From: Octopus vulgaris | Lineage: Eukaryota | Assembly: GCA_951406725.2 (NCBI GenBank) | Contig: OX597833.1 | Location: forward strand, 65,038,001 to 65,102,000 | Direction: 5' to 3' | Length of the DNA stretch: 64,000 bases | Shown: positions 3,330 to 56,214 of the stretch, piece by piece | Numbering within the stretch: the stretch's first letter is position 1 | Layout: each line of letters begins with the position of its first letter | Notes under the pieces: generated by a model | Told to the model about the DNA's origin: nothing | What the model saw: only the letters and a program-made list of their open reading frames with translations | Database searches by the model: none | Position numbers and translations under genes: made by a program

Positions 3330-4627
3330 TCTTTTCTACTATAAGGCCCGAAAATTTTGGGGAGGAGGCCAGTCGATTTGATCGAATCCAGTACGCAACT
3401 GGTACTTAATTTATGGACCGCGAAAGGATGAACGGCAAAGTCGACCTCGGCCGAATTTGAGCACAAAACGCAAAAGATGAAATATCTATTTCTTTTTCCT
3501 ACTCACAAGGGGCTAAACATAGAGAGGACAAACAAGGACAGACAAAAGGATTAAGTCGATTATATCGACCCACGTGCGTAACTGGTACTTAATTTATCGA
3601 CCCCGAAAGGATTAAAGGCAAAGTCGACCTCGGCGGAATTTGAACTCAGAACATAACGGCAGACGAAATACCTATTTCTTTACTACCCACAAGGGGCTAA
3701 ATATAGAGGGGACAAACAAGGACAGACAAAAGGATTAAGTCGATTATATCGACCCACGTGCGTAACTGGTACTTAATTTATCGACCCCGAAAGGATTAAA
3801 GGCAAAGTCGACCTCGGCGGAATTTGAACTCAGAACATAACGGCAGACGAAATACCTATTTCTTTACTACCCACAAGGAGCTAAATATAGAGGGGACAAA
3901 CAAGGACAGACAAAAAGGATTAAGTCGATTACATCGACCCCAGTGTGTGACTGGTACTTAATTTATCGACCCCGAAGGGATGAAAGGCAAAGTCGACCTC
4001 GGCGGAATTTGAACTCAGAACCTAGCAGCAGACGAAATACCTGTTTTTTTTATTAGCCACACGGGGCTAAACATAGAGAGAGCAAACAAGGACAGACAAA
4101 AGGATTAAGTCGATTACATCGACCCCAGTGTGTGACTGGTACTTAATTTATCGACCCCGAAGGGATGAAAGGCAAAGTCGACCTCGGCGGAATTTGAACT
4201 CAGAACCTAGCAGCAGACGAAATACCTGTTTTTTTTTATTAGCCACACGGGGATAAACATAGAGGGGACAAACAAGGACAGACAAAGGGATTAAGTCGAT
4301 TACATCGACCCCAGTGCGTAACTGGTACTTAATTTATCGACCCCGAAGGGATGAAAGGCAAAGTCGACCTCGGCGGAATTTGAACTCAGAACCTAGCAGC
4401 AGACGAAATACCTGTTTTTTTTATTAGCCACACGGGGCTAAACATAGAGAGAGCAAACAAGGACAGACAAAGGGATTAAGTCGATTACATCGACGCCAGT
4501 GCGTAATCTATAGACCCCCGAAAGGGTGAAAGGCAAAGTCGACCTCGGCGGGATTTGAACGTAAACACAGACGAAATACCGCTAAGCATTTTGCCTGGCA
4601 AGCTAAAATCTCTGCCAGCTCGTCGCC
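3330..4627 (-). mobile_element. SINE family A tandem multimer: one head, six ~185-bp units and a terminal unit with a different tail
   Basis: Unit boundaries at about 3487, 3673, 3857, 4042, 4227 and 4413; a single tRNA-like head (A-box side) at ~4580-4627; central gactttgcctttcatcctttcggggtcgataaattaagtaccag resembles the MetaSINE domain. Confidence 0.9.
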
Positions 4628-5034
4628 TTGAATAATTGTAATAATATAAATATAAACCACTGATAGCGTAGGAGACAGTTCTTTTGCATTTTTAGGGCAA
4701 CTACGGTAACTTCTGAACGCAGCGAGGATCATCCCTATTATACGGAATTTAAATTATAGTTCAATCGTTACGCGTGTTTCTGAGATATACAGTGTTCTTT
4801 TTTCAATCCTCAGTCTGAAACGGTCTTCCCTGGACGAAATACTGCATATAGTAAGCGTAAAAAAAGCACATATGATGCATCAATAATGTTTACTTTACTC
4901 GAGTTTTTCTAACCTCAAATTCCATCTTATATGTGTGTGTGAGTGTTAGTGCATGCCTGTATATCAGTGTATGTGTATGTATTTATGTACATATACATAC
5001 ATACATACATACATACATACGTACGTACATACAT

Positions 5035-8539: not shown

Positions 8540-8880
8540 ATCTATTTCTTTACTACCCACAAGGGGCTACACACAGGGGGACAAACAAGGACAGACGAAC
8601 GGATTAAGTCGATTATATCGACTCCAGTGCGTAACTGGTACTTAATTTATCGACCCCGAAAGAATGAAAGGCAAAGTCGACCTCGACGGAATTTGAAATC
8701 AGAACGTAACGGCAGACGAAATACCGCTAAGCATTTAACCCGGCGTGCTAACGGTTGCGAAATGCTTAGCAGTATTTTATCTGCTGTTACGTTCTGAGTT
8801 CAAATTCCGCCGAGGTCGACTTTGCCTTTCATCCTTTCGGGGTCGATAAAAAAGTACCAGTTACGCACTGGAATCGATGG
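8540..8880. mobile_element. Two SINE-A copies head-to-head (8540-8755 minus, 8757-8880 plus)
   Basis: Same SINE-A sequence in opposite orientations, both heads clipped at the junction. Confidence 0.85.
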
Positions 8881-29431: not shown

Positions 29432-30045
29432 GACGAGCTGGTAGCATCGTTAGCACGTCAGGCAAAATGCTTAGCGGTATTTCATTAGTCTTTATGTTCT
29501 GGGTTCAAATTCCGCCGAGGTCATCTTTGATTTGCATCCTTTCAGGGTCGATAAATTAAGTACCAATTGAATATTGGGTTTGATATATATTTCTTTATTG
29601 ACCACAAGGGGCTAAACAGAGAAAGGACAAACAAGGACAGATAAAGGGATTAAGTCGATTACATCGACCCCAGTGCGTAACTGGTATTTATTTAATCGAC
29701 CTCGAAAGGATGAAAGGCAAAGTCAACCTCGGCGGAATTTGAACTCAGAATGTAGCAGCAGACGAAATATCTTACCCACAAGGGTCTAAACATAGAAAGG
29801 ACAAACTAGGAGAGACAAAATGATTAAGTCGATTACATCGACCCCAGTACGTAACTGGTACTTATTTAATCGAACTCGAAAGGATGAAGGACAAAGTTGC
29901 CCTCGACCGATTTTGAACTCATAACGTAATGGTAGACGAAATACCGCTAAGCATTTTGCCTGGCGTGCTAACGTTTCTATCAGCTCGCCGCCCTATTGGG
30001 TTTGATATAATCGACTAGCCCCTTCACCTGATGTTACTGGCCTTT
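29432..30045. mobile_element. SINE-A dimer (minus, 29588-29993) nested in an older plus-strand SINE-A
   Basis: 16-bp TSD tattgggtttgatata at 29572-29587 and 29994-30009; the host copy resumes after it. Confidence 0.88.
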
Positions 30046-30484: not shown

Positions 30485-30490
30485 GTATTA

Positions 30491-31178
30491 AGGCGGCGAG
30501 CTGGCAGAAACGTTAGCACGCCGGGCGAAATGCTTTGCGGTATTTCGTCTGCCTCTACGTTCTGAGATCAAATTCCGCTGAGGTCGACTTTGCCATTCAT
30601 CCTTTCGGGGTCGATTAAATATGTACCAGTTACGCACTGGGGTCGATATTTTCGACTTAACCCGTTTGTCTATCCTTGTTTGCTCCCTCTGTGTTTAGCC
30701 CCTTGTAGGCAATAAAGAAATAAGAATCGTTAGCACGCCGGGCGAAATGCTTAGCGATATTTCGGGCGAAATGTGTAGCCGTATTTCGTCTGCCGTTACG
30801 TTCTGAGTTCAAATTCTGCCGAGGTCAACTTTGCCTTTCATCCTTTCGGGGTCGATTAAATATGTACCAGTTACGCACTGGGGTCGATATAATCGACTTA
30901 ATCCGTTTGTCTATCCTTGTTTGTCCCCTCTGTGTTTAGCCCCTTGTGGGCAATAAAGAAATTAGAATCGTTAGCACGCCGGGCGAAATGCTTAGCGATA
31001 TTTCGTCTGCCGCTACGTTCGGAGTTCAAATTCCGCTGAGGTCGACTTTGCCTTTCATCCTTTCGGGGTCGATTAAATATGTACCAGTTACGCACTGGGG
31101 TCGATATTTTCGACTTAACCCGTTTGTCTATCCTTGTTTGTCCCCTCTGTGTTTAGCCCCTTGTGGGTAGTAAAGAAA
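30491..31178 (+). mobile_element. SINE-A trimer (units restart at gaatcgttagcacg)
   Basis: Complete head ggcggcgagctggcagaaacgttagc; repeats restart at ~30724 and ~30964. Confidence 0.9.
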
Positions 31179-39616: not shown

Positions 39617-40509
39617 ACGCGAACTGGAAAGCTCTGGGATCGTTTACAACCATAACTTTTTCAACGTGACTATCTTTGCTCGCAACTAAATCCTCGTGGA
39701 ATTCTCTGAATGTGTTTGTGACAAAACCACGAGAATAGATATGTCAGTACATTCCTTCTTAAATCAAGAGACGAGGAAACAAACTTCAATTCACAAACCG
39801 ATAATTGTAAGAAGGAATTTTATTTGTTTTCCGTGCCATAAATATTACATCCTTTCAATTCATACCGAGGTCTAAAGAAATTTATTGTATCTGTCAAACT
39901 ATATAACTATATTTTCTGTCAGGTTATATATTACAAAATAATAATGGATTGGCTTAATAATTATAGAATATTCCGAAATTTTTCTGTATTTTTGTTTCCT
40001 ATTCAACAATATCCTCCAGAGATTTCCTGAAACATTGAAATTTACCAAACTAATTCTCGCTATAAAGATTGGAGAATCTGTCTACCATTTCAGCCGCTGC
40101 TGAGCAGAATAGAAGTCGCGCTACGTTGTACAGCTACTACGATAGGAATATGTTAATATAATGATGGGGAGATAATTAAAGAAAAGAGTAGTAATCAATG
40201 CGCGAAGGAACCACATAGCCACGTTGCTTACAACAATTAAAGGGAAATAACTAAAACGAAAAAAATAGTCCCATGGTAGTCGTTGGTCAGAGGGATGTTG
40301 CATCAAAATCCTTTTTACGAAATAAATGTACATGACAACTATTGTGAAGACAGCACATATCCAAAAGGTAAGTTTAAAATCCTTTATATATTTAAGGTGC
40401 AAATGTCCATAATTCGAAGGATATAATCAGAAGAAATGTGTATATACATTAACCCTGCCATTCAGGTCGTCGCTTCTTTTCTCTCTCACACACGGAGGTG
40501 CTTGTGGTC

Positions 40510-40570
<61 letters not shown>

Positions 40571-40599
40571 TGTGTGAGTGTCTGTTTGTGTGCGCGCGT

Positions 40600-40832
40600 G
40601 CCTGTGTGGTTTGAGTCTGTTTTTGTCCCCCCACGATCCCTTGACAACTGATGTTGGTGTGCTTATGTCCCCGAAACTTAGTAGCTCGGCAAAAGAGACA
40701 AATAGAATAAGTACTAAGCTGACAAACAATAAGTTCTGGGATCGATTTCTTCGAATAAAGACGGTGCTCCAGCATGGCCGCAGCCAAAGGACTCAAACGT
40801 GTAAACGAGTAAAAGAGTAAAAGCGTAAAAGA
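40600..40832 (+). mobile_element. SINE family B, 3' half
   Basis: Matches 24940-25145. Confidence 0.85.
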
Positions 40833-40889
40833 GGATACATACATGTGTACATGTCATTCCCCACATTACTTCTTATTGGCCCTCCTGAG

Positions 40890-41181
40890 GGTTTTCGCCT
40901 AACGATCGTAAAGCCGTGAGTTCAACTCCCGTCAGTACGTTGTCTCCTCTAACAAAACAATTTTTTTCACGATCATCCCCTCCAGTCAGAAATGAATAGT
41001 GACTATATTTCAAATGTCCAGCCTTTTCACATTCCGTGTCCCTCTAAACTTCCCTGTGAACTACGTTCTGTCATACGCATGTCTGCGGAGTGCTCACCCA
41101 CCACTTGTATACTAACTTCACGAGCAGGTTGTTCCGTTAACCGAAACAGCTGGAACGCTTGTCGCAACCGATGGAGCAACA

Positions 41182-41182
<1 letters not shown>
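40890..41182 (+). mobile_element. Decayed SINE with D-type head and long tail
   Basis: gtgagttcaactccc B-box; tail gagtgctca.ccactt...ttcacgagcagg.tgttccgtt shared with 13795-13890. Confidence 0.65.
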
Positions 41183-41259
<77 letters not shown>

Positions 41260-42248
41260 TTGTGTGTGCAATTGTGTATATAAGTATGTATGTATGTGTA
41301 TACATACACACGCGTACATAACATCGTAATTGATCGTAATTGCAAAAGAAGAAATATTATCGCTATTGTTTCTCAATAGTGTAAGACAGTACTAATAATG
41401 TTCTGGTTAAGCTGCGAATCTTAATTGCCACAGAAATCTAGAAAAGCATTTATGGAATAAATTACATACAGAACACCATCTGCAGCAAAAGAGACTGAAA
41501 CAAAACAAAAACAAAAAAAAAAACAAACAAAACAAAAGCAACAACCGATATTTAAGATACTGCGCATACACATGCATATATCTGTGTGTGTGTGTGTGTG
41601 TGTATCTGTGTGTGCGTGCGTCCATATATATGTATGTATATAATATTTCATTATACCGAGTATGTCTAGATTTGAGACAAATTCTTTGTGCAATAATCGG
41701 TTGCCAATACCTTGTGACTACTTACAACATCTTCGTTAAGTGAGTAAAATCGAACGGTTAGGAAGACTAATTTCTATTTAATCCAGGTGATTTGCACCGA
41801 ATTAAGCATTAAAAAAACTGATTCCACTGTTATTAGTCTTGGACTGTCCAACATCAAATATTAAAAAATGGCCTCCTTCATCGACTTTTTAACTGTTGCT
41901 GTTTATTCGCGATTGGTGTACTTAGAACTTTTACGACTATTGCTAGCTAATATCAAGTTTATAGGGGATGGATATTAAAGGAAGAAAAAGATCGAATAAC
42001 AGTGTACAAAAACATCCGTTGGATTGTGAAGATGTATCGGTATTAATTCCCGAATGAGCAGAGCAATGACGGTTCGATCTTCGATTTAACTATTGCCATC
42101 TTACTGTCTTTTAGTTTCATGAAAAAGAACGATGCTAATTTACCGATTTGGCAGCATAGGGGAGTAAGATTCAAATCAGCTAGGATCCTGTAAGAAGCAC
42201 AGACTCGCACACACAGACATACACACTCATATATATATATATATATAT

Positions 42249-42399
42249 ATGTATGTGTATGTATGTATGTACGTGTGTATGTATGTATGTATTATGTATG
42301 TGTGTATGTATGTATGTATGTATGTATGTATATATGTATGTACGTATGTGTGTATGTATGTATGTATGTATCTATGTGTGTAAGTATGTATGTACGTAC

Positions 42400-42430
<31 letters not shown>

Positions 42431-42571
42431 TGTATGTATGTATGTATGTGTGTATGTATGTATGTATGTATGTATATATGTATGTATGTATGTATGTGTG
42501 TATGTATGTATGTATGTATGTATTTATGTATGTATGTATCTATGTGTGTAAGTATGTATGTATGTACGTAC

Positions 42572-42602
<31 letters not shown>

Positions 42603-42969
42603 TGTGTGTGTGTATGTATGTATGTATGTATGTATATATGTATGTATGTATGTATGTGTGTATGTATGTATGTATGTATGTATGTATGTATTTATGTATG
42701 TATGTATCTATGTGTGTAAGTATGTATGTATGTACGTACATATGTATGTACGTATGTATGTATGTATGTATGTGTGTGTGTATGTATGTATGTACGTACA
42801 TATGTATGTACGTATGTATGTATGTATGTATGTATGTGTGTGTATGTATGTATGTATGTATGTATGTATATATGTATATATGTATGTATGTGTGTATGTA
42901 TGTATGTATGTATGTATGTATTTATGTATGTATGTATCTATGTGTGTAAGTATGTATGTATGTACGTAC

Positions 42970-43000
<31 letters not shown>

Positions 43001-43236
43001 TGTATGTGTGTGTGTATGTATGTATGTATGTATGTATATATGTATGTATGTATGTATGTGTGTATGTATGTATGTATGTATGTATGTATTTATGTATGTA
43101 TGTATCTATGTGTGTAAGTATGTATGTATGTACGTACATATGTATGTACGTATGTATGTATGTATGTATGTATGTATGTATGTATGTATGTATGTATGTA
43201 TGTATGTATGTGTGTGTATGTATGTATGTATGTATG

Positions 43237-43270
<34 letters not shown>

Positions 43271-43538
43271 TGTATGTGTGTGTATGTATGTGTGTATGTA
43301 TGTATGTATGTATGTATTTATGTATGTATGTATGTATGTATGTACGTATGTATGTATGTATGTATGTATATATGTACGTATGTATGTATGTGTGTATGTA
43401 TGTATGTATGTATGTATGTGTGTATTTATGTATGTATGTATCTATGTGTGTAAGTATGTATGTATGTACGTACATATGTATGTACGTATGTATTTATGTA
43501 TGTATGTATGAATGTATTTATGTATGTATGTATGTATG

Positions 43539-43572
<34 letters not shown>

Positions 43573-43576
43573 TGTA

Positions 43577-43607
<31 letters not shown>

Positions 43608-43802
43608 CTGTAAGTACGTATGTATGTATGTATGTATGTATGTATGTGTGTGTGTATGTATGTATGTATGTATGTATATATGTATGTATGTATGTGTGTG
43701 TGTATGTATGTATGTATGTATGTATGTATGTATGTATGTATGTATGTATGTATGTATGTGTGTATGTATGTATGTATGTATGTATGTATGTATGTATGTA
43801 TG

Positions 43803-43834
<32 letters not shown>

Positions 43835-44006
43835 TGTGTGTATGTATGTATGTATGTATGTATGTATGTATGTATGTATGTATGTATGTATGTATGTATG
43901 TATGTATGTATTTATGTATGTATGTATCTATGTGTGTAAGTATGTATGTATGTACGTACATATGTATGTACGTATGTATGTATGTATGTATGTATGTATG
44001 TATGTA

Positions 44007-44037
<31 letters not shown>

Positions 44038-44090
44038 CTGTAAGTACGTATGTATGTATGTATGTATGTATGTATGTATGTATGTATGTA

Positions 44091-44121
<31 letters not shown>

Positions 44122-44152
44122 CTGTAAGTACGTATGTATGTATGTATGTATG
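42249..44152. repeat. (TATG)n-derived satellite with higher-order structure
   Basis: Marker atctatgtgtgtaag recurs at 42370, 42538, 42706, 42936, 43104, 43440 and 43926. Confidence 0.95.
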
Positions 44153-44515
44153 TCATTGTTCAGTTTTATTCCAAGATTTGTCACCAACAGAGAAAAAGAA
44201 CCGGTTTCTAACCTAGATCCAAGGCTCCTTCATTAGTATTTCAACATCAACAACGGGTTTTTTTGGTTTGTATGCATGTATGTGTGTTTGTGTTTCCACA
44301 GTTTGTATGTCTCTGAAGATCATAATCCGTATACCTGGGATGCAGCACAGTCCGTAGTGTACACGCACGTACACACATATTTATATAATTCCGGAAAAAG
44401 GTTAATAAAATCCTCATTTTCATAACAATAATTTTTGTTTTTCATTAATGTCTTTTGAAAATTCACTTTTGCACTTCAAAAACTGTATAAAGTAATCGTA
44501 GTAGTCTTTCAATAA

Positions 44516-44582
<67 letters not shown>

Positions 44583-44630
44583 TGTGTATATATATATATG
44601 TATATATATACATATGTATATATATATGTA

Positions 44631-44673
<43 letters not shown>

Positions 44674-44703
44674 GTATATACATATATGTATGTATATACA
44701 TAT

Positions 44704-45027
44704 ATGGCTCAGTGGTTAGAGCGTCGAGCTTACGATCGTGAGGTTGTGAGCTCGAATCCCGGACCGAGCTGCGTGTTGTGTTCTTGAGCAAGGCACTTTA
44801 TTTCACGTTGCTCCAGTTCACTCAGCTGTAGAAATGAGTTGCGATGTCACTGGTGCCAAGCTGTATCGACCTTTGTCTTTCCCTTGGATAACACTGGTGG
44901 TGTGGAGAGGGAGGCTGGTATGCATGGGCGACTGCTGGTCTTCCATAAACAACCTTGCCCAGACTTGTGTCTAGGAGGGTAACTTTCTAGGTGCAAACCC
45001 ATGGTCATTCATGACCGAAGGGGGTCT
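44704..45027 (+). mobile_element. SINE family D
   Basis: Near-identical to 18588-18912. Confidence 0.92.
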
Positions 45028-45073
45028 AAGATATATATATATATATGTATATATTTATATATATATGTATATG

Positions 45074-45119
<46 letters not shown>

Positions 45120-46022
45120 GGATATTGGATGTGATGTAAACCAATAAATCATTTTTTTTTTCTCTTTCTTCTTCTGAATATATCCAACAAGAAACATCTG
45201 TTCACTTACATAAACAGTTAAGAACAAATAGGATTTCTGTGATTCTTGTAAGAAATATTATAACATAATAATAAGAAGAACAATAAATATCTATGACAAA
45301 AGAAAAAAAAAAACAATAGTATAAGATAAAAATATCAAACGTCTACATTTGACGTTAAAAACATTTGAATATTTCATTGGAAGTGAGATTCGGATTCGTT
45401 TGTTTCGTGCGTCTCGGCTTCCATTTTGTTTCTTTGCTTTTTCTTTCATTTCAACAAGAGTCGTTACCACAAGTTGTTCGGTACAAAGGTGTTTTTTTTT
45501 TTTTTCCTTTAATAATTATTCATAATATCTGGAAGAAGAAACAAACGAACAGAAAACAATGGTATTAAAAAGAAAAAGAAAAATAATAATAATAAAAACA
45601 AAACAAACGTATAGGTAAATAAATGTCAGTAGAAGATGAAAGGAAAAGATATATCTGTGGAAATTACGAGAACAATTCTCCCAAGATTTCGTATTGTTGG
45701 TATTAAATTGAGGACTTTTAGAGATGTTAAAGATAATGGTAAATTTAATAAGTGGATGCTTAAATATATATATATATATATGTGTGTCTGTGTGTGTGTG
45801 TGTATGTGTGTGTGTATACATAAATATATATGTGTATCTATATATGTATATATATGTGTATGTATATATATGTATATGTATATATATATGTATGCATATA
45901 TGTATATGTATATGTATATATGTATATATGTATGTGTGTGTGCGTGTGTGTGTATGAGTGTGTATCTATGTATATATATATAATCACATACATGCAAACA
46001 GACACACATACAAACGCACGCA

Positions 46023-46057
<35 letters not shown>

Positions 46058-46253
46058 TTGTAATGACATAAGTACACAAACACAAATACAGGTATACACA
46101 CACGTAAAGTCAAAAATACGTACACATACCTTTACACACATACGCAATACATATATATATATATATATATACAGAGAGTACGAAAGAGAGCGTGAGTGAA
46201 AGAGACATATAATATACATATGTATATACATACATACATACATACATTCATAC

Positions 46254-46293
<40 letters not shown>

Positions 46294-46727
46294 CTGTGTG
46301 TGTGTCTACCTGTGAATATAAATATATACTAACATACATACGCTTACATATGCATACGTACATGCATATATATATATATATACACGTATATATACATACA
46401 TACATATATTATACAGACATACTTATTCAAATCCTCGCATTGTTTTCATTAATCCTCATCTATCATCGTTATCTTCCGCTTGCTAAAGACATAAACACTT
46501 TGAATTGCAACGAGACACATTGGTTTGACAATGGAATCTTCTGACGATGAAACGAATTCTTTGAAAGATACGGAAAACACCAATTCTGCCCGGACTGGCA
46601 GGAAGCATTAGAGCAGAGGTTTAGAGGAATTGTCTGCTGCTTTTGATGTTAGAGTCTACGAAGTCATTCCTCAGAGATCTCTATGTTAGCAAAAACTTTC
46701 ATAAAGTTTCCTGTGATATACATATAC

Positions 46728-46784
<57 letters not shown>

Positions 46785-46821
46785 CATGTATGTATGTATG
46801 TATTATGTATGTATGTATGTA

Positions 46822-46871
<50 letters not shown>

Positions 46872-46947
46872 TGTACATACATACATAAATATACGTTCGT
46901 ATATATACATACATATACCAATCTCTCTCACTCTCTCTCTCTCTATG

Positions 46948-47028
<81 letters not shown>

Positions 47029-47093
47029 CTGATAGATAGATGGGCTGACAGATATATATATATATATGTACACACACACACACACACACACAC

Positions 47094-47137
<44 letters not shown>

Positions 47138-47504
47138 TAGATAGATAGATATAGATATAGATAGATATTTCACACACAGTGTATATGTGGTGTGAAGAAT
47201 CGTGTCTTTGTGAAAGCTCTGTATCGCAATGTTTTATATATACTCCCATTCTGTTATTCTGTTATTCCTTTTCGCTTTGTTCTCATTAGACTGCATGTCA
47301 GATTGAATAGTGCAACCGCTCAGGTGTTGACTGCACAAGGCAACAGCTGAACATATTTCGAATTTGGTATTTATTCGATCGGATTCTTTTTTCGAAGAAA
47401 TAATGTTACTCAAATGCTATAGAAACAAACAACACGAGGACAGAAACGGATTTAATGTGCAAATTTATATGTGTATATATATGTATGATCCAAAACAAAA
47501 AAAA

Positions 47505-47656
47505 AAACGAAGTAAAAACAGAAGAAAAAACAACAACGCGAAGGCATGCTATATCGAAAGTATTAAGAGACGTTCATAAAAAGAAAGTTAGTTTTACATT
47601 TCGAACAACGCTCTTCTTCAGAAACGGGAGACAGGGGAAAGTCCAAGAGAAAAGAC
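47505..47656 (-). mobile_element. Family E element with canonical-core hammerhead motif at 47591-47625
   Basis: Minus strand gttt-CTGAAGA-a-gagc-gtt-gttc-GAAA-tg-TA-aaac. Confidence 0.7.
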
Positions 47657-48310
47657 AGGCGGTGTTCCGGTATGGACGCAGTCAAATGACTGAAACGAGT
47701 AAAAATATAAAAGGATATGTATGTGGGTACGTGTGTGGGGTGTATGTGTATGTGTGTACAGAGATATAAGATCCAGGGATCGAGGTGTAGGAAAACGGTT
47801 AACTTCAAGCAATCCTTAGTAAATACAAAAAAACAATTTTCATGGACAATTGTGGTTTATTGAGATGAAAAGTTGTGGTGTTTTTTTTTTCCGTATTGAA
47901 GTATGATAAATTGATAGAAGTTCTTCTAAAATTTCACACGGGGTTGCCGGGTGTGCGAATAAGAATACAAGGGTTCAGGTAATGAATAAATAAGATCCGT
48001 TCTACATATGTTTCATAGCGAGTAGAGCTTCAGAAGAGGAAAAATATCCAAACGCGGTGTATACTGCAGACTACTCTTCAGGCCGAGGATATCTTGGTTA
48101 AATGAAAGTTTACATTGTCTCAGGCAGGTACATGTTAATACATGGAAGATATTCGTATATGTATATCCGGCTATGTAAGGATTGATTAAATTACCTTTAG
48201 TGTTTCCACTCCGAGGGACACAACAGAGGTTGTAGCCACTGCATCAAACTAATCTCTTAGTATACATACATATGTAGAAGTATGTGTGTGTACATGTATA
48301 CACACACATG

Positions 48311-48351
<41 letters not shown>

Positions 48352-48435
48352 TGTGTGTGTGTGTATGTGTGTATATATGAATGTATATATATGTATGTAT
48401 AAATATATGTGCATATATACATATATATATATATA

Positions 48436-48592
48436 GGCGCAGGAGTGGTTGTGTGGTAAGAAGATTGCTTCCCACCTACATGGTTCCGGGTTCAGTCCCA
48501 CTGCGTGACAACATATAGACCGCTGTCTTCTACTAAGGCCTCGGAACGACCAAAGCCTTGTGAGTGGATTTGGTAGACCGAAACTAAAAGCC
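48436..48592 (+). mobile_element. SINE family B, 5' half
   Basis: ggcgcaggagtggttgtgtggtaag...ccaaagccttgtgagtggatttggtagac. Confidence 0.88.
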
Positions 48593-49684
48593 CCGCCTCT
48601 TTCGAGCGTTGGTAACCCACTAAGAACTGCAGTTGTTATATTTAACCAGCAAATAGTACATTTATGGATGTGCGCAAAAATTTAGCAAGCAAGTGGCGCG
48701 CTAAGCTGCGTTAATTAAAATATAGACGTGTACAATTGTATTTAATACCATCGTGAGCGAACGTGACAAGGGCGTCGCTATGGAAATAATCCCGTGATAG
48801 ATCCCCCTCACAGACAATCCAGGGAAAAGTGCTAACCATTTGGGTACGGACATCGCCATTGGAACCTTAGCGTCGTTACAACTCGTCAGTTACAGATACA
48901 GAATCCTTCATTCATAGACCAATAAGAATTCGCCGTCGCTTTTCTTTTCGTTCCTTTCTTTTTTGTGAAACAACAAACACTAAATTTGCTGCTGCGCAGA
49001 AACGATAAAGTGGGAAAAGATTAATCTTAAATTGAATCAAATAAAGACAAACTTTGGGGATTTCTGCCTTTACATTTCTCTTCCCTCCTGGGAAATATAA
49101 AAGAAACACTAGTTTGGCTTTTGTATTTCCACATTTTATTATTCACTCTACAAACAATGAAATAAAGGAAATTGCTTCAGTGTAAATAAATTAGGATAAT
49201 ATAGTATTTCCCTGGCTGTTTCTTTGCCGAAATCTTATTCATCTGCGAAAATATTGAATTATTCCTGAACATCTTCTGCCAAAAACATTCAGTTTTTGGC
49301 AGGATTTGATTTTGAGCTGTCTGAAAAGTGGCCAGTGATTTTTTGAAGATACTGTTCACGTGTCTATAGTAGTAACCGAATGTGTGAGGCGTGTGTGTTT
49401 ACATGGACAAGGACATCATTAGTGGCAGTTATAATACCATCAGATACTTTTGAGAGAAAAGAAGGATTCTCCGATTCGAAAATGCTAAAATTCTTGTATC
49501 ACCTGATTTCGCTGAAGACACCCAATGCCCGAGAAGTGGTCACAGATTATCTGGTCTCCCAATCGAGATTCTACCGGATTTCTGCTATTTGCCAAATTGC
49601 CATGCAGAAGTATTGAACTAGAAATGACAACAGTTATGAAGAGAGGATTAGAACCACACCAATATTCCTGCTTTTCCGTTTTCT

Positions 49685-50282
49685 TATTTCTTTATCGCCC
49701 ACAAGGGGCTAAACACATAGAGGGGACAAACAAGGACAGACAAAGGGATTAAGTCGATTACATCTACCCCAGTGCATAACTGGTACTTAATTCATCGACT
49801 CCGAAAGTATGAAGGGCAAAGACGATCTCGGCGGAATTTGAACTCAGAACGTAACGGCTGACGAAATACCTGTTTCTTTACTACCCACAAGGGGCTAAAC
49901 ACAGACGGGACAAACAAGGACAGACAAAGGGATTAAGTTGATTACATCTACCCCAGTGCATAACTGGTACTTAATTCATCGACTCCGAAAGTATGAAGGG
50001 CAAAGTCGACCTCGGCGGAATTTGAACTCAGAACGTAACGGCTGACGAAATACCTGTTTCTTTACTACCCACAAGGGGCTAAACACAGACAGGACAAACA
50101 AGGACAGACAAACGGATTGAGTCGATTATATCGACCCCAGTGCGTAACTGGTACTTAATTTATTGACCCCGAACGGATGAAAGGCAAAGTCGACCTCGGC
50201 GGAATTTGAACTCAGAACGTAACGACAGACGAAATACCGCTAAGCATTTCGTCTGGCGTGCTAACGTTTCTGCCAGCTCGCT
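49685..50282 (-). mobile_element. SINE-A trimer
   Basis: Three ~183-bp units with junctions near 49870 and 50053; one head at 50240-50282. Confidence 0.9.
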
Positions 50283-51529
50283 AAAGTATACACCGTCTCC
50301 CAATCGAGATTCTACAGGATTTCTGCGAAGAAATTTTAATTGAAACATGATTGGTTGAGTCAAAACTATTTGCCAAACTGCCATGCAGAAGTATTGAACT
50401 GGAAACGACGACAATTATGAAGAGAGAATTAGAACCATACCAATATTCCTGCTTCTCCGTTTGCTGTTGGCATATTTAAATATCTCACAAATGACTCGGT
50501 GGTTCGCAATAATTCTAATTGAAGACTGGTTCAAATTTATGAAATTCCAATCTTTACATTTCATTTATGTCAATTGTATCTTGACATTTTAGTAGTCAGA
50601 ATGTTCATCGATACACACATACTCACACAGAAACGCACAGAAATATCAACAAGAAAAATAAAAAAGAAAGGAAAAAAATGTAAGTTCTGAAAATCAATGG
50701 ACGATAATATAGATACAAGGAATTATTACTCTTTATCAACAATTGCCAAGAATCATTCGATTCTTCTTGGCAGAACTTGATCTTTAGCTGTCTGAATAGA
50801 AGCCAATGAATAGTCAGAGATTTTCTCTACTACTCTGAAGAAATGACCTAATTTTACTAAACAATTGTCTTCGCAAACAAAGCAGTATTCTTGCATTTTT
50901 CAGGAGGACATTCGTATTAAAAAGGCACCATGGGGGACATGTCGATAAGGTAATTGAGTCAACGAGAAAGCGTCAATAAGATCGATCAACTTGCTTAGAT
51001 ATACATTACCATTTCTTTGTCCGATCATATAATCTAAGAGTGAAATAGTGAATGGGGAGGCGACCTAATGTTCCAATAATGTATGGTAGATGTTAATGGT
51101 ATTACAATATTTATAAAAGATGAACATCTATAATCTTTGAAAAAAAGAGAGAGGGAGAATACATATTATATAATGTATTCCCTGAAAGCATTTCTTAGTC
51201 AACACTAGTCATGACCAGTCTAATCTGCTAGATATAGCAGTCAAATCTTCGTCATGCACATTTCACAGTCTAGAAAAAACAAAACGCATTGAATAATATA
51301 TTATATAAATTTGAGAAGAAGGAGATATTGACACGAGATAATGTATCCCAATGTTTGAAAATGTAATGCTTATACCAAGGTCATGGATGGGACGTTTATG
51401 ATTCAATCATGTATTGCCTGGGGCTGAACAACTACTGCAAGAACAGAAACAACACCAACAACAGCAACAGTGACAGCCTTTACCATAATATCTCACATGT
51501 CAAACAGGCCACGAATCGAGCATTACTGT

Positions 51530-51670
51530 ATTTCTGCATCAAATCCACTCAAGTCTTTTATGGGCCCGATGCTATAGTAGTAGACACTTGCCCAAGATGT
51601 CTTGCAGTGGGACTGAACACGGAACCATGTGCTTGGATAGCAATCTTCTTATCACACAGACATGCCTGCA
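51530..51670 (-). mobile_element. SINE family B, 5' fragment
   Basis: caaatccactca...gctatagtagtagacacttgcccaag...gtgggactgaac; a similar fragment lies at 53015-53140. Confidence 0.75.
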
Positions 51671-51884
51671 CCTACAAGATAATCGCCGTTAATTTTTTTA
51701 TATATTTTTAATTAACAAAAAAAATAAAACACAAGGTCTAAGAAATAAGCATTTGTATTATAGGAAGATGCCAGAAATTCTGAGGGATAAGGTTGTTGAT
51801 TACATTGCACGACTGGTATCTATATTATGGACCCCAAAGGGATAACGCACACATCCGCACACATACGTATATGCACACATATCC

Positions 51885-51932
<48 letters not shown>

Positions 51933-51970
51933 AGACACAAACACACACACATACACACATACACACACAC

Positions 51971-52034
<64 letters not shown>

Positions 52035-52036
<2 letters not shown>

Positions 52037-52265
52037 TTCTTTATTGCCCACAAGGGGCTAAACATAGAGGGGACAAACAATGACAGACAGAGGGATTAAG
52101 TCGATTAAATCGACCCCAGTGCGTAACTGGTACTTAATTTATTGACCCCGAAAGGATGAAAGGCAAAGTCGACTTCGGCGGAATTTGAACTCAGAACGTA
52201 ACGACAGACGAAATACCGCTAAGCATTTCGTCCGGCACGCTAACGTTTCTGCCAGCTCGCCGCCT
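52035..52265 (-). mobile_element. SINE-A monomer in (GATA)n
   Basis: Complete head-to-tail copy. Confidence 0.92.
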
Positions 52266-52266
52266 T

Positions 52267-52391
<125 letters not shown>

Positions 52392-53382
52392 GGATACTAT
52401 GAGCTTCTTCGTGAGCGGGCGGTGTCCCTCCGGAACCCCGCAAATTTACGCCACTTTTACTTTTTTATCTAAATGATTTTACATCTCATTACTTTCATTG
52501 TCCATAGTTTATATATGGACATACAAATTTCGAGTTAAAAGTGTCGACTCATATGGATATTACAGCATAAAATATGGTCATTGATGTCCAACTAGACCCC
52601 TTTGGCCTTCTGTGAAATTATTTTTTGTCTTTTTTTTTTCAGACATTCCGATGAACTATAAGTCAATTTTCTTCGTACTTGTGCTGGTATGAATTGTTAT
52701 ACTAAATTATATTCTATTTTATAATTAGTGTGGTATGTATAGTTTATAAAACTGTTATTGATTTATTTCAATAAAGGATTATTTCGGTGAATATTTTATA
52801 TTATATATTTCATATTTTAGATTTTAATTCTCCTCCATTGAACTCCAATAATTACAAATATATACCTATGAAATATTAAATTCCTTGTTCTGTATCATGC
52901 ACTCACACATACATACAAGACGGAACAAATATTACTTTATAGATAGTGCGGAAATGGGCAAAAACAAAAGCGGGTCCCTCGGGACCGCAATGGCCTTTTG
53001 TGTAATTCCAATCCATCAAATCCAATCGCAAGGCTTTGGTCGTCCGAGTCTATGGTAGAGGACACTGGGTTGCGGTGTGTCAAAGTGGGACTGAACCCAG
53101 AACCATGTGGAAAGTATGTAAGCTTCTTACCACACAGCTGTACTAAACCAATTTTTAATTATTTTTTTTCCAGTCTCATTCACTATTTTTCTTCAATTTT
53201 AATCGCATTGTCAAAGAGTAAAATATTCGGGAGTAAACACCGACCAAACTAACCGACGCTGGAGCACTTTGTGTCCTCTATTAATAGTGGTCATAATCTA
53301 CTGCCCAGGGAAACATGACGACACGTCAGCCTCTTGTTTTTTTTTCTTTTGTTTTGTTATTAGCAGAAGCTATGATTTGCAA

Positions 53383-53983
53383 AGGCGACAAGTTAGCAGA
53401 AACGTTAGCGCACCGGGCGAAATGCCTAGCGGTATTTCGGCTGCCGTTACGTTCTGAGTTCAAATTCCGCCGAGGTCGACTTTGCCTTTCATCCTTTCGG
53501 GGTCGATTAAATAAGTACCAGTTACACACTGGGATCGATATAATCGACTTAATCCATTTGTCTCTCCTTGTTTGTCCCCACTATGTTTAGCCATTTGTGG
53601 GTAATAAAGAAATAGGTATTTCTTCTACCGTTACGTTCTGAGTCCAAATTCCACCGAGATCGACTTTGCCTTTCATCTTTTCGGGGTCGATAAACTAAGT
53701 ACCAGTTACGCACTGGGGTCGATGTAATCGACTGAATCCCTTTGTCTGTACTTGTTTGTCCCCTCTATGTGTTTAGCCCTTTGTGGGTAGTAAAGAAATA
53801 GGTATTTCGTCTACCTTTACGGTGTGAGTTCAAATTCCGCTGAGGTCGACTTTGCCTTTCATCCTTTCGGGGTCCATAAAATAAGTACACTTACGCACTG
53901 GGGTCGATATAATCGACTTAATCCCTTTGTCTGTCATTGTTTATCCTCTCTATGTTTAGCCCCTTGTGAGCAATAAAGAAATA
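53383..53983 (+). mobile_element. SINE-A trimer bounded by a single TSD
   Basis: Junctions aaagaaatag|gtatttc at ~53615 and ~53801; TSD agaagctatgatttRcaa at 53365-53382 and 53984-54001. Confidence 0.92.
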
Positions 53984-54322
53984 AGAAGCTATGATTTACA
54001 AGTATTCCAGTGTAGTCTCTATATTGATTCTATATCTAAAACTCCCTCCATCTTTCCCTCTTTCTCTTTCTTCCAACCTCTCAACTGTTTTAGGCGCCAC
54101 TTAATAATAATGTCATGGGCGCCATATTTCTTTACACATAACAGGTGTCTCCAGCAAAATTGTTTGTTATATTATTTATGTTATTGCCAAATTTTCAATA
54201 CGAAAAATACAACTACATTGACAATTCCTTTAAGTATTTCTCTTTGGTGAATGCTCAAATTCTTGCGTAAATAATACATCCCAGAACATGGCCAGTTTTC
54301 GTGAAGGGGGTTCTTTTACTCT

Positions 54323-54373
54323 ATTATTATCATCACCATCATCATCATCATCATCATTATCATCATCATCATC

Positions 54374-54463
<90 letters not shown>

Positions 54464-54464
54464 G

Positions 54465-54538
<74 letters not shown>

Positions 54539-54780
54539 CATCATCATTATTATTATTATCATCATCATCATCATTATTATTATTATTATTATTATTATCA
54601 TTATTATTATTATTATTATTATCATCATCATCATCATCATTATTATTATTATTATTATTATTATCATTATTATTATTATTATTATTATTGTTGTTGTTGT
54701 TGTTATTATGCAATCATCATCACTTATTATTATTAACCGGTGCCATTATTATTATCATTATTATTATTATTATTATTGTT
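54323..54780. repeat. Compound (ATC)n/(ATT)n microsatellite
   Basis: Directly visible. Confidence 0.95.
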
Positions 54781-54983
54781 GTGTTCGTTGTTGAAAGACT
54801 TATTAAGCTCGCAATTAGTCCGAATGGTTTGTTGTAAAACGAGGAATCGAAGTAATGAAAAAGAAAAGAATCTCCTCAGTTCGAATATTCAAGTAATTCT
54901 TCATGGTTTCCATCGAGTAAATAACACCAAATTTAAGCATTCTTTTAACACAAACTGGATTTCAAAGGTAGGTTTGATTCTTT

Positions 54984-55627
54984 CGTTAAATACAGTTGCT
55001 GTTGTCATTGATGTTGTCGTTGTTGTTGTGGTCGTAGCCGGTGTCGTTCGTGCTTTTGATCATGTTTACTTCCTTCACATCGAAGTCGGCCATGTTATAG
55101 CAGATTCATGTGATCGAAATATACTCCAACCATGACCATCTTGTCTTTTAATCTGTATCTAAGAATCCATTGTTGAATGTGATATTATTCCAAGACAAAG
55201 AATATAATTTGGAAGATTGTTATTTTTGGCTCAACATCGGTAACATAAACAAGCTAAGGGGCACCTCTCCAACAAGTGGTACTCTCCGTAGTTTGTTCTC
55301 ATGCTACCGTTAAATACAGTTGCTGTTGTCATTGATGTTGTCGTTGTTGTTGCGGTCGTAGCCGGTGTCGTTCGTGCTTTTGATCATGTTTACTTCCTTC
55401 ACATCGAAGTCGGCCATGTTATAGCAGATTCATGTGATCGAAATATACTCCAACCATGACCATCTTGTCTTTTAATGTGTATCTAAGAATCCATTGTTGA
55501 ATGTAATTTTATTCCAAGACAAAGACTATCATTTGGAAGATTGTTATTTCTGGCTCAACAACAGTAACGTAAACAAACTAAGGACCACCTCTCCAACAAG
55601 TGTCCTTAGTTGTCTCATGCTACCGTT
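54984..55627. repeat. Tandem duplication with 324-bp period
   Basis: cgttaaatacagttgctgttgtcattgatg... begins at 54984 and again at 55308. Confidence 0.93.
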
Positions 55628-55771
55628 GTTGTTGTTGTTGATGGTGGTAGTGGTGGTGGTGGTGGTGGTGGTGGTGGTGGTGGTGTTGATGGTGGTGATG
55701 GTGGTGGTAGTTGTGTTGCAGTTCTTCACCAGTAGGTTAATCCTGATAAAACAAGCATCTCATTAAATACC

Positions 55772-56004
55772 TATTTCTTTACTACCCACAAGGGGCTAAA
55801 CACAGAGAGGACAAATAAGGACAGACAAAAGGGATTAAGTCGATTACATCGACCCCAGTGCGTAACTGGTACTTATTTAATCGACCCCGAAAGGATGAAA
55901 GCTAAAGTCGACCTCGGCGGAATTTGAACTCAGAACGTAGCGGCAGACGAAATACCGATAAGCATTTCGCCCGGCGTGCTAACGTTTCTGCCAGCTCGCT
56001 GTCT
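55772..56004 (-). mobile_element. SINE-A monomer
   Basis: Full copy flanked by ttaaatacc on both sides (TSD). Confidence 0.92.
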
Positions 56005-56214
56005 TAAATACCACGATCCATTTTTGATCCTCTCTACATTTGTTAATCCGTTAGGGTAAAATTCGAATTAAAAACACCAGATTGAGTTGACATCCCCCTA
56101 CGTTATAATTTAAAGACTAAGGAAGGTATATTTCTTACCACCATAGGTTTTGCTCCCTTTATTTTAATATTTCTTTTGTTTATTTTTTATCCTTTATATT
56201 TTTTTATTTATAAT

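Follow-up and report, generated by a model that had tools for sequence, protein, structure and literature searches.

In the genome of Octopus vulgaris, SINEs of one tail subfamily insert into older copies of their own family at a fixed base of the tRNA-like head, position 51 of the 233-nt reference, and leave target-site duplications there. In the reading that we consider probable, the TAGT/TAAT subfamily inserts at GGTA(TTT) sites, own-family position 51 included, under the guidance of RNA, and the nested loci that result are pasted anew by a borrowed LINE. A sequence-only reading of the 64,000-nt stretch analyzed here (the window) had described four arrays of SINE units that restart at one point of a head hairpin and had offered three models: reverse transcription of a circular RNA, retroposition of the SINE into its own copies, and descent from a single dimeric master.

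Arrays and joints

The arrays are real and abundant. BLAST with the 233-nt monomer 52035-52267 recovers all four of them together with both monomers noted earlier (Table 1), and the proposed unit length of approx. 185 bp agrees with TRF periods of 185, 174, 184, and 184. In the 2.8-Gb genome, the exact 20-mer joint has 39,269 matches, compared with 0 for the reversed-pattern control. In a sample of 80 stretches of 10 kb (800 kb) at fixed round coordinates, 168 SINE clusters were found, 30 of which contain more than one BLAST match; of 41 joins between units, 28 have their restart at reference position 51-52, and 4 have it at positions 18-20 after a full tail. The target duplications place the restart one base to the left of where it had been drawn, with GAAATA as the tail and GGTATTT as the resumed sequence; its initial G opens the 3′ arm of the head hairpin, which has 13 bp and a 4-nt loop. 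Most of the junction loci used below lie within the initial 3.7 Mb of a single chromosome. Duplicates (L176, a duplicate of L177, among them) and clusters located at the edge of a locus were excluded before counting, and the array statistics exclude L171-L200, so that L053 (= L189) is absent from the 119-locus head classification given below.

Within array 3330-4629, units 5 and 6 are 3% apart, and a private variant is common to units 2-4, which fits local duplication; no outer target duplication was resolved in its AAT-rich flanks. The copy at 55772, previously listed as a monomer, is indeed a single unit, but it carries the array-type TAGT tail and a 9-bp duplication starting with GGTATTT. 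The trimer 49686-50281 is flanked, as read by eye, by a direct repeat of approx. 120 bp (49530-49680 and 50295-50465), which is approx. 10% diverged, has an indel of approx. 40 bp, and far exceeds the usual length of a target duplication. The window also contains a 324-bp tandem duplication that is 95% identical (54984-55602, TRF) and two partial SINE copies in inverted orientation (8544-8878).

Table 1. Positions of SINE arrays, single copies, and associated sites in the window
Feature	Position	Strand	Remarks
Array: head, six A-family units, last B-family unit	3330..4629	-	six joints; different tail of the older family B at 3330-3370
TAGT-tail monomer (8544-8756, -) head to head with inverted partial copy (8758-8878, +)	8544..8878	.	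BLAST
Outer target duplication, left copy, of the 29589-29992 dimer	29572..29587	+	read by eye; within older + strand SINE starting 29434
Dimer: head, unit, unit, with CAAT tail last	29589..29992	-	joint partly deleted
Outer target duplication, right copy, of the 29589-29992 dimer	29994..30009	+	16 bp, identical
Array of CAAT-tailed units at the alternative position-18 site	30490..31178	+	tail AAGAA onto head AGAA; BLAST, TRF
Trimer: head, two TAGT units, last unit with CAAT-type tail	49686..50281	-	joints 49860, 50044
CAAT-tail monomer within (ATAG)n tract	52035..52267	-	233-nt reference
Outer target duplication, left copy, of the 53381-53982 trimer	53365..53382	+	18 bp, 1 mismatch
Trimer: tRNA-like head, TAAT unit, TAGT unit, CAAT unit	53381..53982	+	joints 53606-53625, 53792-53811
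Head hairpin between A- and B-box-like motifs	53414..53443	+	3′ arm from 53431 = GGTATTT, self-target site (reference position 51)
Outer target duplication, right copy, of the 53381-53982 trimer	53984..54001	+
TAGT-tail monomer (55773-56005) at non-SINE GGTATTT site	55763..56012	-	9-bp duplication 55763-55771 / 56004-56012

SINE families and tail subfamilies

The element is 233 nt long and consists of a tRNA-like head with a 13-bp hairpin, a central domain, and a family-specific tail. It is short, non-coding, and dispersed, with 66,426 TAGT-tail and 14,451 CAAT-tail pattern matches in the genome; target duplications were found for 26 of 48 A monomers. The head shows a cloverleaf-like fold and motifs that resemble the consensus A and B boxes, the B-box-like one being GTTCAAATTC; ARAGORN and Rfam call no tRNA. 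The central domain is common to family A and three other families, named B, C, and D by their tails (divergence is slightly higher in B, 6.7%, than in A, 5.6%). The element may resemble the MetaSINE superfamily, in which a 66-bp Meta domain follows a tRNA head.

The joint is linked to one tail subfamily, TAGT/TAAT. Only few bases distinguish the CAAT from the TAGT subfamily. Among the first 100 matches listed for each and counted by eye, position 51 follows 73 TAGT tails and 10 CAAT tails (Fisher p = 1e-20), and 5 CAAT tails join position 18. Restarts after TAGT/TAAT tails fall at positions 51-53 in 140 of 143 cases. Among the 117 inner tails of the 80 clean single-head arrays considered below, 79 are TAGT, 20 TAAT, 9 CAGT, 3 CAAT, and 6 other. 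Scaling the 73%, a rate taken from the start of one chromosome, to the 66,426 TAGT matches gives an estimate of approx. 48,000 joints. In each subfamily, the internal site that is favored matches the continuation of its own tail: AGAA at 18-20 for CAAT and GGTA at 51 for TAGT.

The second, rarer restart at positions 18-20 occurs via AGAA microhomology; CAAT-tailed copies that join SINEs there form units of approx. 217 nt (e.g., window 30490-31178, L054:1760-2134, and L004:548-932). The mini-SINEs L441, L444, L446, and L434 lack the body, with the head fused to the tail at a shared TTAGC; two or more of these copies have target duplications of their own. At L399 (G000:C1:141254000-141262000), SINE arrays adjoin tRNA-like genes in a repeated unit, and one array has rearranged joints.

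Insertion into older copies of the same family

The double-head pattern, in which an old head ends just past GGTATTT and a new head begins, has 111 matches genome-wide, probably an undercount because they include both L041 and L053 from the round-coordinate sample. The 29 distinct double-head loci that were fetched run from the new head through a full unit to a tail, which is of the TAGT/TAAT type in 28; GGTATTT (at most 1 mismatch) directly follows the inserted tail in 27. These loci carry a target duplication of 12-17 bp starting at the GG restart base. Non-consensus bases of the left site recur in the right site in 33 of 42 cases, compared with a mean of 12.1 and a maximum of 21 in 2000 shuffles. 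This recurrence of private variants identifies the repeat as a target-site duplication; thus, the copies landed in SINEs that already existed there, and insertion into older own-family copies at position 51 is shown. In particular, double-head loci with matching duplications directly support the second of the three models, retroposition into own copies.

Insertions of the TAGT subfamily at GGTA(TTT) sites in non-SINE sequence show the same geometry. Of 25 GGTA+V loci of this kind, 14 have a duplication that could be resolved; in these 14, the two bases of the GG agree with the left duplication in 14/14 and 13/14 loci and the preceding A in just 4/14, which indicates that the A comes from the element. 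Because hairpin-free GGTA sites are used with the same geometry, the hairpin is not needed. Non-SINE insertions at GGTATTT number approx. 650 (1,167 × 14/25) versus 1,871 at GGTA+V. The ratio of these counts is 0.35 and that of the background 87/1,661 = 0.052, so that GGTATTT targets are over-represented approx. 6.7-fold. At six loci (L320, L322, L329, L347, L350, and L353), the left copy departs from the SINE and the right copy follows it; this pattern of apparently RNA-templated letters is suggestive at most, because the loci were selected on the right copy.

Head-only tandem repeats of 65-66 bp, each consisting of a head and the duplicated site, were seen as well (G000:C14:84691116-84691413; L176/L177 and L195). 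At double-head loci, such repeats reach up to five consecutive pattern matches.

Composition and origin of single-head arrays

Among the 119 loci that carry a joint, there is a single head in 90 and a pair of heads in 4; a further 23 are 5′-truncated, and 2 are doubtful double-heads in which an old head is followed by a truncated or deleted unit. Since double-head loci amount to only 4 (plus 2 doubtful) of the 119, most arrays depend on a second step, in which the nested locus would be transcribed and retroposed as a whole. The 80 clean single-head arrays comprise 55 dimers, 18 trimers, and 7 longer arrays, with a maximum of 7 units. Their last units are of type A in 39, B in 22, C in 4, and D in 2, with 13 unclassified, and belong to another, older family in 28 of the 80. 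Outer duplications flank 29 of the 80 arrays, compared with 5 of 120 shuffled flank pairs, and were not found for the other 51. The heads are of the A (donor) type: G39 occurs in 72 of the 80 and in all 6 arrays with a C or D last unit, and C/D monomers mostly have A39 (28 of 36). Moreover, the outer duplications of B-ended arrays look young, with 1 mismatch in 94 bp versus 8 in 102 for B monomers (p = 0.04, in a small sample from which one false pair was dropped and for which the family classes were refined afterwards). Read-through of a nested locus is suggested by the A consensus, which has no T4 stop; 47 of the 80 arrays have since gained a T4 run. It is likely that single-head arrays are re-retroposed read-through chimeric RNAs from many source loci, and likely also that they were afterwards lengthened by local duplication. 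No source-progeny pair of a double-head locus and a single-head array was identified among the loci examined, and in an empty-allele check at L024 against four contig runs, the matches were swamped by repeat contigs.

It is quite unlikely that single-head arrays arose in one step, either by a switch of the reverse transcriptase from old-family RNA to TAGT RNA or by cDNA that replaces the old head through homologous strand exchange. Such a step would fit the large excess of single-head (90/119) over double-head arrays and the target-derived start of 2 of the 80 arrays, and template switching between SINEs has been invoked for hybrid SINEs in the relevant passages of PMC4824008. However, head replacement predicts old outer duplications, contrary to the few mismatches in B-ended arrays (1/94 versus 8/102), and an exact switch point would still require RNAs that already bear the joint. 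A seamless join that retains the head of the target was considered separately and rejected for most arrays: private non-CpG variants at positions 51-66 are shared by first and last unit in 2 of 80 arrays, and such sharing is near shuffled levels.

Descent of all arrays from one ancestral master dimer, the third model, is hardly credible as the sole explanation. In its favor, GG is retained after the tail in 109 of 117 joints, 77 joints are identical across 16 nt, and the internal tails are TAGT/TAAT in 99 of 117. A single master nevertheless fails because no fewer than four tail families are represented among the last units (the counts are given above) and because those of type B are as diverse as B monomers (12.4% versus 12.2%); no grouping of B-type last units into few masters was seen among 22 units, a number of little power. 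It is also contradicted by double-head loci with independent insertions and private duplications, and approx. 1,700 joints have an additional tail repeat. A weakened form of the model is needed in the preferred reading, namely that most arrays are apparently copies of whole chimeric RNAs from many sources.

Unit divergence and the circle model

The arrays are very probably not a new RNA circle system, and the first model is unsupported. It supposes that the head hairpin is cleaved and a 185-nt piece is ligated into a circle that is copied by rolling-circle reverse transcription, which we regard as very improbable. Units copied in this way should be alike, but in A-A dimers (n = 23) the divergence between the first unit and the last is 9.4%, compared with 9.2% between loci (2,467 pairs), and only 4 of the 23 dimers contain close pairs. 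Pairs of internal units differ by 4.0%, with 11 of 20 below the 1st percentile of between-locus distance. These distances indicate that the first joint unites independent elements and that later units are often local duplicates, a pattern opposite to the rolling-circle prediction. A few arrays are nearly homogeneous, e.g., L246, with 5 units that differ by 1-5%; such arrays would fit a circle, as would the position of the restart at the base of the 3′ arm of a stable hairpin and a slight excess of first units starting at positions 50-59 (9 of 194, with 7, 4, and 3 in neighboring bins). However, the exact boundary is explained by the target duplications, last units come from other families, and 90 of 119 loci have heads.

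No ribozyme of a known class was found either. Rfam gives 0 matches at gathering score in the 64-kb window, none of 34 weak Rfam matches (E ≤ 10, 49600-56100) is a ribozyme, and the hammerhead core CTGANGA (CUGANGA) is absent on either strand of the circularized consensus unit. The fold of a transcript with two units is not better than that of shuffled sequences (z -1.5). The sequence-only reading had also proposed that the junction re-forms a hairpin; tail and arm are indeed complementary, but the re-formed hairpin has -1.4 kcal/mol, compared with -15.3 for the head hairpin. As a functional element it was judged weak and rejected; GAAACA or A-run variants disrupt the pairing, and no change compensates for this.

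In the RNA-seq runs X21-X23, which are unstranded, mostly of the CAAT type, and have an organism code that differs from that of the genome, 58, 64, and 50 reads cross the 185-back joint. Such reads say little in favor of a circle, because the same joints exist in genomic arrays; no read-end pile-ups at the joint were listed for these runs. The 218-back joint is crossed by 195, 170, and 111 reads, and the position-18 joint thus exceeds the 185 joint.

The candidate LINE helper and the choice of the site

A search for LINEs that started from fragments sharing the SINE tail and covered the best 30 zf-RVT loci and two tail patterns led to a LINE family whose 3′ end aligns to the last approx. 45 nt of the SINE, including the TAAT tail. 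L448 is a full-length copy with a 446-aa ORF1 that contains a zinc knuckle and a 1128-aa ORF2 with an APE endonuclease, reverse transcriptase, and zf-RVT; the best PDB match of ORF2 is human L1 ORF2p (E = 4e-66). This tail-sharing LINE, of the L1 type and putatively of the Tx1 clade (its Atlas matches carry no clade name), is likely the helper. None of 21 copies of the L448 family has the SINE-type AGG after its tail, and their 3′ flanks are varied, with no fixed target, which suggests that the RNA of the SINE sets the site. Among 640 position-51 sites, 24 have neither a head nor a SINE tail upstream, and no LINE tail was recognized by eye in these.

Several other candidates were rejected. For the first LINE candidate, whose tail is followed by CTTATC (916 matches), GGTATTT occurs in 0 of 100 matches listed, and L390, L399, and L400, which have non-SINE sequence at position 51, are not LINEs. 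Complementarity between tail and hairpin arm was rejected as a guide, since GAAAT is also the end of CAAT SINEs and of the LINE, which rarely or never use the site. Two further LINE observations were made. At L449 and G000:C2:73046133-73062761, four copies of a 1140-aa L1/Tx1-type LINE lie in tandem, approx. 5.4 kb apart, with no SINE at the ends in the stretch fetched. At L261-L272, the tail of a LINE family runs into CTTATC(TATC)n, often within (CTAT)n tracts.

We infer that the site is set by RNA-DNA pairing through a read-through extension. Nested loci would be read through by Pol III from the young head, and the transcript would run through tail-GGUAUUUCGUC into the remainder of the old copy. 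Reverse transcription primed at the final tail would then yield arrays of a head and n × 185, to which unequal exchange or slippage may add third and later units. The GGUAUUU extension could also pair with nicked target DNA and allow priming inside the joint, which would give rise to the "monomers" at GGTA sites as well as to new nested insertions; thus, the loop would feed itself. As a copy of the head site, the extension would direct the LINE enzyme, itself of loose specificity, to this base in every relative; with each insertion, further templates bearing the same extension would arise. That such a self-sustaining, RNA-guided self-homing loop, founded when a nested insertion gave the RNA a 3′ copy of the head site, built the approx. 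40,000-50,000 joints is a tentative proposal, whose chance of being right we put slightly below even.

The main rival to RNA guidance keeps self-insertion and re-retroposition but assigns the choice of the site to the endonuclease of another Tx1-type LINE that prefers GGTA(TTT) and mobilizes the TAGT subfamily, in analogy to Tx1-Mar and SINEU-3. We consider it unlikely. Targeting in the Tx1 clade is attributed mainly to the endonuclease in the pertinent part of PMC4494074, several zf-RVT LINE families with related tails are present in the genome, and a GGTATTT-preferring LINE may escape a search of the best 30 zf-RVT loci and two tail patterns. However, AGG follows the tail in none of the 21 copies of the LINE family closest in tail, and GGTATTT in none of 100 listed tails (counted by eye) of a second family; in addition, CAAT and TAGT tails are nearly identical, yet each favors the site that matches its own tail continuation.

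Relation to known elements and significance

The behavior of the element is a variant of the target preference known from other SINEs. The closest parallels concern SINEU-3 of crocodilians, which, according to the relevant passages of PMC4494074, has an L1/Tx1-type partner and inserts at a fixed site of another repeat, a Mariner, with a duplication of approx. 15 bp; sequential insertions yield tandems, and Tx1-Mar LINEs share the target. The octopus element is likewise a SINE, probably mobilized by an L1/Tx1-type partner, with a fixed repeat site, a duplication, and tandems. In contrast to SINEU-3, its target is its own SINE head, the sampled tail-sharing LINE is at the site in 0 of 21 copies, and the extra units are head-less. 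The same passages cite R2-type integration, in which co-transcribed target sequence on the RNA strengthens site-specific integration. Target sequence on the RNA that aids integration is also the step proposed here; however, the R2 site is set by a site-specific endonuclease, whereas an RNA extension is proposed to guide a loosely specific enzyme in the octopus.

Tandem arrays of SINE parts are known from other animals. Squamate SINE-derived satellites (sSat) are described in the part of PMC10702118 that deals with them as partial-SINE tandems with a longer terminal unit reaching the SINE end; the units are approx. 150-180 bp long, number up to 1000, favor subtelomeres, and are ascribed to duplication and concerted evolution. 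The octopus arrays are also partial-SINE tandems with a longer terminal unit but, unlike sSat, have 2-7 units, are dispersed and of mixed family, are flanked by target duplications, and are mostly not homogenized. In the blood clam, tandem SINE multimers of the form TSD1-(SINE)n-TSD1 have a full head in the first unit and later units head-truncated at one position; inner tails are truncated too, and recombination has been proposed (relevant passages of PMC11481361). The full first head, the fixed-position head truncation, and the single outer duplication are shared with the octopus arrays, in which, however, the inner tails are complete and insertion footprints occur at the restart. Metazoan non-LTR retrozymes are short tandem non-coding units with a hammerhead each and circular RNA, as outlined in the corresponding part of PMC7229834. 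The octopus units are short, tandem, non-coding, and of similar size; in contrast, no ribozyme was found in them, and they consist of a SINE body and a tail derived from a LINE.

Targeting of the SINE's own head is not mentioned in the relevant passages of PMC4494074, PMC11481361, PMC7229834, PMC4824008, PMC13282606, PMC8967140, PMC13295347, or PMC10702118. No prior description was found in the open literature, a scope that leaves aside Repbase and most subscription journals.

These findings trace, by means of insertion footprints, how dispersed SINEs can turn into tandem arrays without heads; head-less SINE arrays in reptiles and bivalves have previously been ascribed to recombination. As a practical consequence, a single element will be broken up into many chimeric "families" in repeat libraries of this genome. 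The two sister subfamilies, whose tails are almost alike and whose landing sites differ, constitute a natural experiment on the roles of RNA-DNA pairing and endonuclease in target-primed reverse transcription. If pairing suffices, this bears on the evolution of target specificity in non-LTR elements.
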